A stretch of 64,000 bases of DNA. It comes from an uncultured Rickettsiales bacterium. Its GTDB lineage: Bacteria > Pseudomonadota > Alphaproteobacteria > Rickettsiales > JABDBP01. Position 1 is the first letter of the stretch. Every line of letters starts with the position of its first letter. Location: assembly GCA_964450945.1 (NCBI GenBank), contig CAYVHI010000001.1:93316-157315 (forward strand), read 5' to 3'. Below, in pieces: positions 50,184-50,991 of this stretch. The notes beneath the pieces are model-generated. The model was not told where the DNA came from, did no database searches, and was given only the letters and a program-made list of their open reading frames with translations. Made by a program: the position numbers and the translations under genes.

Positions 50184-50477
50184 ATGACCAAAGAGGAGTT
50201 CGAGGAGAAGCTTAGGCTTCTCAGGCTTCTTCGAGCTCATCATGAGCTCGAGCTGGAGGATCTTAGCGATAAGATCACTCCGATGGATATGGTGATCGCG
50301 AGGGTGTTCTTTTGCATCACCCTCAGTAATGATCTTGGCTTTTCAGACGAGGAAGCCAGCAAGATCATCAGGTCCATTATCCGGGCAGGAAAGTTCGAAG
50401 AGGCGCTCGCCCTCAGGAATTCGAAAGAATGCCTGATGGCCCTCATCGAGAGCCTCAACCCCCCGGCCCCTAACTAA
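50184..50477 (+). CDS. small helical protein ORF A (97 aa), unknown family
   Basis: AGGAGG SD 4 nt upstream of the ATG. GAG/AAG/AGG-biased codons. The stop codon lies in the loop of the first repeat hairpin. Confidence 0.6.
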   Translation: MTKEEFEEKLRLLRLLRAHHELELEDLSDKITPMDMVIARVFFCITLSNDLGFSDEEASKIIRSIIRAGKFEEALALRNSKECLMALIESLNPPAPN

Positions 50478-50538
50478 GGGCCGGCGTCAACCTTCGGGGT
50501 GTTTCTTCCTGCCTCACGGCAGGCGGGAACACCCCACC
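50463..50538 (+). repeat. 76-bp twin-hairpin repeat, copy 1
   Basis: Identical at 76/76 positions to 50916-50991. Confidence 0.95.
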
Positions 50539-50573
50539 CGCCCAAAACTCCTAGAAGAAGAAAGGAAGGTAAC

Positions 50574-50885
50574 GTGGACGCAAGCGTAAGGGAACAGGTC
50601 GAGAGCCTGTTACGCAAGGGGGTTGCAGGGATGAAACTCCCCACCAAGCAAAACGAGGAAGATTTCATCCGCGAAGCGATCAAGTTGGCCCTCTTCCTGG
50701 TTACCCTTCTTGCAAAGAGCAAGAAGGAACGCCCTCTTGACTGGGTTGTGGCCGTCGCCGCTGCCTTGACTTACGGCGGCTTTCACTTCGAGGCCTACAA
50801 GCTTCACAGCTGGAGGGGCCTCACTCGCCTCCTCCGCCGCTACTCTCTAGGGAAGAAGGTGTTGAGTTGGTTGGAAGGGAAGTAG
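50574..50885 (+). CDS. small protein ORF B (~104 aa), two hydrophobic helices and basic tail, unknown family
   Basis: The GTG at 50574 follows GGAAGG and lies 35 nt after the repeat, which parallels ORF C. An alternative ATG is at 50631. The track start at 50499 would read through the hairpin. Confidence 0.5.
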   Translation: MDASVREQVESLLRKGVAGMKLPTKQNEEDFIREAIKLALFLVTLLAKSKKERPLDWVVAVAAALTYGGFHFEAYKLHSWRGLTRLLRRYSLGKKVLSWLEGK

Positions 50886-50915
50886 GAGGAGTAACTCTCT
50901 TTCTCCGCTTCCAAG

Positions 50916-50991
50916 CCGGCCCCTAACTAAGGGCCGGCGTCAACCTTCGGGGTGTTTCTTCCTGCCTCACGGCAGGCGGGAACACCCCACC
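50916..50991 (+). repeat. 76-bp twin-hairpin repeat, copy 2
   Basis: Identical at 76/76 positions to 50463-50538. Wholly intergenic. Confidence 0.95.

Follow-up and report, generated by a model that had tools for sequence, protein, structure and literature searches.

An exactly duplicated twin hairpin between small ORFan genes in a GC-rich island of an uncultured Rickettsiales bacterium

A 76-nt element composed of two hairpins is present twice, without a single difference, in a 64,000-nt stretch of the genome of an uncultured Rickettsiales bacterium (assembly GCA_964450945.1, contig CAYVHI010000001.1, positions 93,316 to 157,315; hereafter, the window). Both copies lie on the + strand, shortly ahead of small genes, in an operon of three open reading frames (ORFs) without detectable relatives (ORFans), whose composition sets it apart from the neighbouring genes. 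We interpret the twin hairpin as the probable structured intercistronic spacer of a tandemly duplicated unit in a horizontally acquired operon, made uniform by gene conversion and acting at the RNA level, a composite reading that we favour but hold with some reserve. Most likely, the element is a feature of an ordinary kind, a structured intercistronic spacer kept uniform by conversion, with a private sequence.

Two identical copies at similar distances from the next start codon

A preliminary description of the locus had reported that positions 50463-50538 and 50916-50991 are identical, and a base by base comparison of the two copies confirmed this for 76 of 76 nt. The repeat can be extended in the same register to 87 nt with two mismatches (50463-50549 versus 50916-51002), both grouped at its right edge. 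Further to the right, the similarity fades gradually, with an identity of ~67% in a gapped alignment that runs through the Shine-Dalgarno region up to the start codons (GTGGACG and ATGAACG). The leader 50539-50573 can thus be aligned, at the same ~67%, to the corresponding 33 nt ahead of ORF3 (50992-51024). By contrast, the left edge is abrupt, and the flanks to the left of 50463 and 50916 are unrelated in alignments.

The first 15 nt of copy 1 represent the last four codons and the stop codon of ORF1, with the TAA at 50475-50477 located in the loop of hairpin 1; this loop holds TAA stops in two frames. Copy 2 is wholly intergenic and begins 30 nt past the stop codon of ORF2 (TAG 50883-50885). 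The next start codon is found 35 nt after the end of copy 1 (GTG 50574) and 33 nt after that of copy 2 (ATG 51025). These placements and distances are as the preliminary description gave them.

The duplication does not stem from the assembly. Independently assembled Logan unitigs of further Sequence Read Archive runs match the window exactly. Unitig L004 stops at 50492, exactly 30 nt inside the repeat from the left, and unitigs L001 and L003 begin at 50962, 30 nt ahead of the first right-hand mismatch. Such breaks are the behaviour of a k=31 graph at a true exact repeat.

No third site for either hairpin was found in the window with up to three mismatches allowed (0 expected by chance), and when the entire window was searched, unfiltered, with a covariance model of the element, nothing credible turned up beyond the two copies. 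Including the ~17 kb of flanks available from Logan, there is no further copy in the ~81 kb of genome surveyed. The covariance model did score a stretch inside ORF2, 50757-50836 (+), at 23.7 bits (rough E ~8e-4); the layout there is again that of a twin hairpin, and the loop, UCAC, is the same. We rejected it as a third, degenerate copy, since neither nhmmer nor Smith-Waterman alignment detected sequence-level similarity to the element; it is probably a chance match in GC-rich coding DNA.

Table 1. Coordinates of the element, of the island genes and of their surroundings in the window (GC3, G+C content at third codon positions)
Feature	Position	Strand	Remarks
guaB	48229..49683	-	flanks the island
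Compositional island	50100..51340	+	highest G+C of the window, up to 58% versus a mean of 43%
ORF1	50184..50477	+	97 aa; ORFan; GC3 0.68; strong Shine-Dalgarno AGGAGG
Copy 1 of the twin-hairpin element	50463..50538	+	similarity runs on to 50549
Copy 1, hairpin 1	50463..50484	+	loop 50470-50477
Copy 1, linker	50485..50495	+	
Copy 1, hairpin 2	50496..50535	+	
Copy 1, tail	50536..50538	+	ACC
A-rich leader, copy 1 to ORF2 start	50539..50573	+	unstructured; contains Shine-Dalgarno GGAAGG
ORF2	50574..50885	+	103 aa from GTG 50574; ORFan; GC3 0.73
Copy 2 of the twin-hairpin element	50916..50991	+	similarity to 51002
Copy 2, hairpin 1	50916..50937	+	
Copy 2, hairpin 2	50949..50988	+	
ORF3	51025..51339	+	104 aa; ORFan; GC3 0.64; low-confidence model all-helical
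Canonical intrinsic terminator	51352..51409	+	stem 51352-51399 with a 13-bp basal run, then UUUUAUUUUU; closes the three-gene unit
metE	51415..53724	-	flanks the island

Folding of the element

Each copy folds into two hairpins, as initially described, and does so more stably than dinucleotide shuffles (z = -4.2 for copy 1 and z = -5.2 for copy 2). Hairpin 1 has a 7-bp stem and an 8-nt loop (CCGGCCC / CTAACTAA / GGGCCGG). In hairpin 2, the outer arms GGGGTGTT and AACACCCC enclose CCTGCC-TCAC-GGCAGG. The outer and inner stems proposed earlier for this hairpin hold, but not the 4x4 internal loop drawn between them. In the RNA of the + strand, three of the four positions of that loop pair (U.G, C-G and U.G), and hairpin 2 is a continuous helix of 11 bp, one U/C mismatch and 6 bp. 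On the - strand, it is of the form 8+1+6, with C/A clashes. The G.U pairs that make hairpin 2 continuous on the sense strand only represent a modest argument for a role of the sense-strand RNA.

Neither hairpin is followed by a T-tract in the DNA, and hence a U-tract in the RNA: CGUCAACC comes after hairpin 1, and ACCCGCCCAAAA or ACCAGCCUAAAA after hairpin 2. A terminator scan lists no intrinsic terminator at either copy, and the operon's real U-tract terminator is found after ORF3, in keeping with the earlier remark that the hairpins are not ordinary terminators. As this is the sole U-tract terminator, the three genes most probably form one transcription unit, in which the twin hairpins are internal.

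Strong GC-rich hairpins directly after the stops of ORF1 and ORF2, in an island whose composition indicates a GC-richer donor, might also be partial terminators or attenuators that dispense with a U-tract, Rho-assisted or of the 'I-shaped' hairpin type, and that grade transcription along the operon. However, the textbook U-tract at the operon end is missing from both hairpins, and only 33-35 nt, with no promoter-like site, separate them from the next gene, so that real termination would silence ORF2 and ORF3. We regard this possibility as very improbable.

Other readings of the element were set aside. Potential upstream ORFs starting from GTG 50499 and GTG 50952, within hairpin 2, have no Shine-Dalgarno sequence, and their start is buried in the stem. 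A tRNA-like reading of the 76 nt was rejected as well: the one match of the Rfam tRNA model is the tRNA at 48082-48167, and there is none on the element, with E values up to 10 accepted in the island. At gathering thresholds, Rfam 15 gives one tRNA only for the whole window; with E up to 10, the element yields only matches of 16-20 bits to microRNA-hairpin models, whose thresholds are 72-79 bits.

A GC-rich island of three ORFans

The two copies are part of a ~1.2-kb island flanked by guaB and metE. Its three same-strand ORFs (97, 103 and 104 codons) all display coding periodicity and Shine-Dalgarno sequences, and their GC3 is 64-73%, compared with 40-44% in the neighbouring housekeeping genes. 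Normal periodicity together with a deviant GC3 marks the island as real coding DNA of foreign origin, and the composition of the locus as a whole indicates that this ORFan island was acquired horizontally.

The start of ORF2 is uncertain, since the database copy of the protein has 84 aa, which corresponds to ATG 50631. GTG 50574 has a better Shine-Dalgarno sequence (GGAAGG) and agrees with the leader of ORF3. From that GTG, ORF2 is in the same frame as ORF1, and one TAA and 32 sense codons, running through copy 1, are found between them. We rejected read-through joining the two ORFs: the probability of a shared open frame by chance is ~0.1, and ORF2 has a Shine-Dalgarno sequence and a start codon of its own.

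Two word-indexed searches of 5.8 billion clusters, one with a three-sequence profile and the other with the single sequence of ORF1, an exhaustive HMMER search over 1.84 billion representatives, and searches of Pfam, PHROGs, NCBIfam, PADLOC and PDB returned only self-matches or noise for ORF1, ORF2 and ORF3. With three ORFans that have no relative among ~15 billion predicted proteins, placed between housekeeping genes, the island is an odder object than the element itself.

The host is a deep-branching, uncultured alphaproteobacterium. Its GuaB protein is at most 78% identical to any other, and the best named matches come from Alphaproteobacteria known as metagenome-assembled genomes. The contigs of the nearest GuaB relatives have other neighbours and show no synteny at the island site. 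Since the nearest GuaB is only 78% identical and the contig neighbours differ, the empty site could not be reconstructed.

Between the start of guaB and ORF1, there is a 500-nt non-coding gap (49684-50183) of ordinary to low G+C content. Several small hairpins (e.g. 50107-50125 and 50153-50171) are found in it, and a palindrome of the form TTAAGG-N5-CCTTAA is located near 49897-49913. Rfam gave no match in this gap, and a clear promoter was not detected.

ORF2 and ORF3 as probable tandem paralogues

The repeat period is 453 nt, i.e. 151 codons, and the distance from the start of the element to the next stop codon is nearly the same in both units (423 nt for copy 1 and ORF2, 424 nt for copy 2 and ORF3). 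ORF2 and ORF3 can be aligned over their full length with 26% amino-acid identity. Compared with shuffled sequences, z is 3.5 for the global and 4.4 for the local alignment (p = 0.003-0.006). AlphaFold models of the two proteins each consist of six helices, in one shared order and with boundaries that nearly coincide, albeit at low confidence: the predicted local distance difference test (pLDDT) scores are only 52 and 59, too poor for a fold search. Alignment, helix order and geometry agree, which suggests that a unit of twin hairpin, leader and ORF was duplicated in tandem long ago. ORF2 and ORF3 are thus probable old tandem paralogues, and the two copies of the element head two collinear 453-nt units. 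Neither these units with their probably paralogous ORFs nor the foreign-looking ORFan island featured in the preliminary description.

ORF1 has no significant similarity to ORF2 or ORF3. In a three-way alignment, it looks like a relative whose last helix has been lost to the element.

Gene conversion as a likely cause of the identity

At aligned codons, the nucleotide identity between ORF2 and ORF3 is 39, 52 and 28% at positions 1, 2 and 3, respectively, as against 100% in the spacer. With third-position identity at 28%, silent sites are saturated. The identity over 76 nt, which extends to the loops and the linker, is therefore beyond purifying selection alone. The earlier proposal of selection or recent conversion was the right frame, and short-tract gene conversion, or a recent overwrite between the copies, appears to be the simplest account. 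A conversion tract is limited to a segment still similar enough to recombine, which implies that this segment has been under more constraint than its flanks. In our model, functional constraint would have kept the 76-nt block similar, after which conversion or a recent overwrite would have homogenised it. The tract would end where the flanking homology has decayed, and on the left it would have overwritten the 3' end of ORF1.

A second shared tract is located close by, with 16 of 17 nt identical between GCCCTCATCGAGAGCCT (50439-50455, at the end of ORF1) and GCCCTCATCAAGAGCCT (51052-51068, codons 10-15 of ORF3). It lies 7 nt to the left of copy 1 and 60 nt to the right of copy 2, and both versions encode ALI(E/K)SL (p ~0.007 by codon shuffle). 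This tract may be a sign of intra-locus recombination, i.e. a short conversion patch, or a chance occurrence.

The same facts could be accounted for by a recent, neutral patch of local duplication or conversion, in which a piece of 87-110 nt from the leader of ORF3 was copied over the ORF1/ORF2 junction, or the reverse, and the hairpins play no role. Recency predicts perfect identity; moreover, the two mismatches are grouped at the right edge, the stop of ORF1 comes from the element as though its own end had been overwritten, and the 16/17-nt tract is in the vicinity. Nevertheless, the block matches the extent of two very stable hairpins exactly (z = -4 to -5), which is unexpected for 76 random nt, and the spacing to the next start is preserved. 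In addition, a 76-nt direct repeat is prone to deletion, yet ORF2, which it flanks, is intact in all the Logan unitigs that cover it. We consider a neutral patch unlikely, though still to be reckoned with.

That even the loops and the linker are perfectly conserved, and that the spacing to the next start codon is conserved, might point to an operator for a sequence-specific binding protein, perhaps one of the island ORFans, acting either at the RNA level, where it would control how the next cistron is translated, or on the palindromes in the DNA. Furthermore, the linker of copy 1, ACCUUC, can pair with the Shine-Dalgarno sequence GAAGGU of ORF2. However, such a sequestration is particular to copy 1 and is not reproduced in copy 2, and we did not retain it. 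The ORFs match no nucleic-acid-binding family, the palindromes leave no adjacent room for a promoter, and conversion explains the identity of the loops and linker more simply. An operator thus seems a distinctly improbable interpretation.

Searches for relatives and comparison with mobile palindromic elements

Pattern scans were run on 596 Gb of genomes, on JGI metagenomes and on IMG/VR viral contigs. As they demanded exact stems, diverged relatives would be missed. The pattern CCTGCCNNNNGGCAGGNNNNAACACCCC gave only matches that alignments showed to be due to chance in genomes, metagenomes and viral contigs alike, and hairpin 1 as an exact pattern had 0 matches in the viral contigs. Two more patterns used on the viral contigs yielded unrelated hairpins, plus one site that we looked at more closely. 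When the island and the element were compared by BLAST with phage and plasmid records, no match had an E value below 0.3; similarity to a Rhodovastum plasmid was examined and did not extend.

The viral site is found at 797-840 of a GC-rich, phage-like contig (L007, IMG/VR UViG_3300011426_000108; the same sequence occurs in L008 and L009). The contig carries TCTTCCTGCCgCACGGCAGGCaGcAACACCCCAC, which is identical at 31 of 34 positions to the upper part and 3' arm of hairpin 2. The site directly follows the stop of a 246-aa gene and precedes the next gene by ~60 nt; judging by eye from their translations, the neighbours of that gene look like phage head genes. We rejected it as a homologue, because the search pattern fixed 20 of the matched positions and the wider flanks agree at 13 of 30 positions only, so that chance is a possible explanation.

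These searches bear on the earlier idea that a small palindromic mobile element, similar to repetitive extragenic palindromic (REP) sequences or Rickettsia palindromic elements (RPEs), had seeded both junctions. A non-autonomous element of this kind, whether a REP, a bacterial interspersed mosaic element (BIME), an RPE or similar to a miniature inverted-repeat transposable element (MITE), would have been inserted independently at the two sites. The sharp left boundary would fit, as would the intrusion of copy 1 into the end of an ORF, a habit of RPEs and some REPs, the stops in two frames in the loop of hairpin 1, and the CGTC that follows hairpin 1, since CGTC-tagged REPs are typical of Alphaproteobacteria (PMC3733652). 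Like REPs and BIMEs, the element is made of GC-rich transcribed palindromes; these are mostly located downstream of coding regions, between genes of the same direction, and sometimes overlap gene ends.

REPs are single palindromes of 20-40 nt with tens to hundreds of dispersed copies (PMC3733652; RepRanger 2025, PMC12306157). In contrast, our element has 76 nt and two differing hairpins, one of 7 bp closed by an 8-nt loop and one of 17 bp closed by a 4-nt loop, and its two known copies are adjacent and in the same orientation, with none elsewhere in the window or in the ~17 kb of flanks. The stems of CGTC REPs have 8-9 bp and start with A/T, their loops have 4-5 nt, and a CCA tail is present (Di Nocera 2013, PMC3733652). 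Here, the CGTC at 50485-50488 follows a G/C-only stem of 7 bp with an 8-nt loop, there is no CCA tail, and hairpin 2 lies 7 nt off. The features of GTAG REPs are absent as well (PMC3733652).

With regard to MITEs, the ends of the element, CCGGCCCCTAAC... and ...GGGAACACCCCACC, are not inverted repeats of each other, and there is no target duplication in the flanks CTCAACCCC / CGCCCAAAA of copy 1 or GCTTCCAAG / AGCCTAAAA of copy 2. RPEs are palindromic repeats of ~100-150 bp that occur dozens of times in a genome, in many cases as in-frame insertions translated as part of ORFs. Compared with that description rather than with a consensus sequence, the element differs in having two copies and in the TAA triplets of the hairpin 1 loop, present in two frames, which end ORF1 where an RPE would be read through. 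RPE-4 and RPE-6 have been equated with CGTC REPs (PMC3733652).

Finally, the similarity does not end with the element but reaches the start codon by way of the Shine-Dalgarno sequence, and this, together with the collinear units, argues for duplication and not insertion. Insertion of a mobile element at both junctions is accordingly quite unlikely. Of the roles proposed in the preliminary description, which is thus partly supported, an RNA module remains plausible whereas a REP-like mobile element is unsupported. The uniformity of REP sequences themselves has long been ascribed to gene conversion (PMC3733652; PMC12306157).

A possible role of the twin hairpin in the operon mRNA

We return to the twin hairpin as the spacer of a duplicated unit, each unit comprising the hairpins, a Shine-Dalgarno sequence and an ORF of ~103 codons. 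The spacer would serve as the 3' trailer of one cistron and the 5' leader of the next. Its most likely function, as far as can be judged from the sequence, is that of a sense-strand RNA module, either a 3' barrier to decay or a processing site. It has the anatomy of a protective structure, with a stable sense-strand hairpin after a stop codon, no U-tract, and an unstructured, A-rich stretch downstream.

In this scheme, the + strand transcript would pass through the hairpins without termination. An endonuclease might then cut in the unstructured, A-rich 33-35 nt before the next start, a candidate entry site, after which the hairpins would represent barriers to 3' exonucleases for the upstream cistron. 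With its ~18 stacked positions and one mismatch, hairpin 2 might also be a site of the RNase III type. Each cistron ends in a strong hairpin (twin hairpin, twin hairpin and terminator, respectively), and each could therefore give rise to a stable mRNA of its own. A ribosome that completes ORF1 would unfold hairpin 1 of copy 1, which leaves hairpin 2 as the part shared by the two sites.

Several points weigh against this interpretation. The role in RNA is read from sequence anatomy, and both cleavage and the resulting 3' ends are predictions. Because the two copies are identical, the structure has no support from covariation. Hairpin 1 of copy 1 would be melted by ribosomes translating ORF1 to the end, so that the two copies would differ in function for this hairpin. 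BLASTP detects no significant pairwise similarity among ORF1, ORF2 and ORF3, and the case for the paralogy of ORF2 and ORF3 is built on weak statistics and on models with pLDDT values of 52-59. The copy number of two is that of the ~81 kb surveyed and not of the whole genome. Lastly, a recent functionless duplication or a role at the DNA level would give the same picture in the sequence.

A bolder hypothesis, which we find far-fetched, is that the twin hairpin is either the junction of an undescribed, integrase-independent array of small-gene cassettes or a private cis-regulatory leader RNA recognised by the ORFan proteins. In the former version, units of hairpins and ORF may be exchanged or homogenised via the hairpins, for instance by template switching at palindromes. 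Such an array would account for the presence, on foreign DNA, of unrelated-looking ORFans of equal size with identical structured spacers. It would not be an integron array. The attC sites are single imperfect hairpins that end in the complementary core sites R'' (RYYYAAC) and R' (GTTRRRY), accompanied by intI or an attC cluster. By inspection, the ends of the element are not complementary, and there is no RYYYAAC...GTTRRRY pair on either strand. The genes on either side are guaB and metE, without an integrase, and what comes after the third gene is a terminator and not a third site.

If the twin hairpin does act in RNA, this locus would be a compact natural operon in which every cistron has its own 3' stabiliser. 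It would also illustrate how gene conversion can freeze a functional non-coding block beside paralogues that have diverged to saturation. The element could make a useful case study, and possibly a portable insulator between cistrons; it opens no new question.

Other features of the window and its flank

Elsewhere in the window, a 106-nt direct repeat (4191-4296 and 5177-5282) shows 89% identity between its copies. One copy is inside the 3' end of a 929-aa ORF (5139-7928, -), which may be a valyl-tRNA synthetase, judging from its HMGH and KMSKS motifs. The second copy is found ~1 kb downstream, in the intergenic gap that separates two ORFs with signal-peptide-like N-termini. A 793-aa ORF (17799-20180) contains many repeats apparently encoding RTX-like GGxGxD nonapeptides, and a separate run of 30-nt tandem repeats is found at 10599-10748.

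Adjacent ORFs of 294 and 411 aa beside secB (54340-56475) have no Pfam match on record, and the 294-aa protein is a singleton cluster at 90% identity. The G+C content falls sharply to 23-24%, the minimum of the window, at 59400-59800, between the ORFs 58631-59455 (-) and 59821-60858 (+). In the left flank (L020), genes for a DUF2671 protein and a phage-integrase-family protein (3924-4190 and 11161-12060) may mark another mobile region.

Comparison with known intercistronic and start-associated structures

The layout of the element is reminiscent of the start-associated sequences (SAS) and extended start-associated sequences (ESAS) of Cluster K mycobacteriophages, in which a 13-bp motif, GGGATAGGAGCCC, precedes the start codon by 3-8 bp and has imperfect inverted repeats of 17 bp upstream of it (Pope 2011, PMC3203893). 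The ESAS inverted repeats are present in 5-10 copies per genome, and a role in translation or expression has been suspected (PMC3203893). In both cases, repeated blocks with inverted repeats are found at a fixed short distance before the starts of small non-structural genes in mobile DNA. Nevertheless, the sequences are unrelated, and our element consists of two perfect copies in an island of a bacterial chromosome. The SAS motif is absent from the leaders GAAAGGAAGGTAACGTG and AAGAAAGGGAAAAAGATG, and the likeness is thus one of layout only.

Similarities of anatomy also exist with the RNase III sites of the early region of phage T7. Located between consecutive small genes, these consist of two stems, a lower and an upper one, with an internal mismatch or loop between them, and their cleavage leaves a 3' hairpin by which the upstream message is stabilised. 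Hairpin 2 has ~18 stacked positions only and no sequence similarity to them. A stem-loop between pufA and pufL in the puf operon of Rhodobacter is an intercistronic structure of the same kind as those considered next.

The closest parallels are provided by intercistronic 3' protective structures such as the REP hairpins between malE and malF and the consecutive hairpins of menBCE (Dar & Sorek 2018, PMC5927463). The present element differs from them as an exact 76-nt duplicate of two unlike hairpins in a foreign-looking operon of ORFans, and the resemblance is one of anatomy only. Like them, it forms stable stem-loops devoid of a U-tract between co-transcribed genes, immediately after the upstream stop codon, and more than one such structure can be found in an operon. 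The action that we propose for the twin hairpin would also be common to this class, namely to block 3'-5' exonucleases after an endonucleolytic cut.

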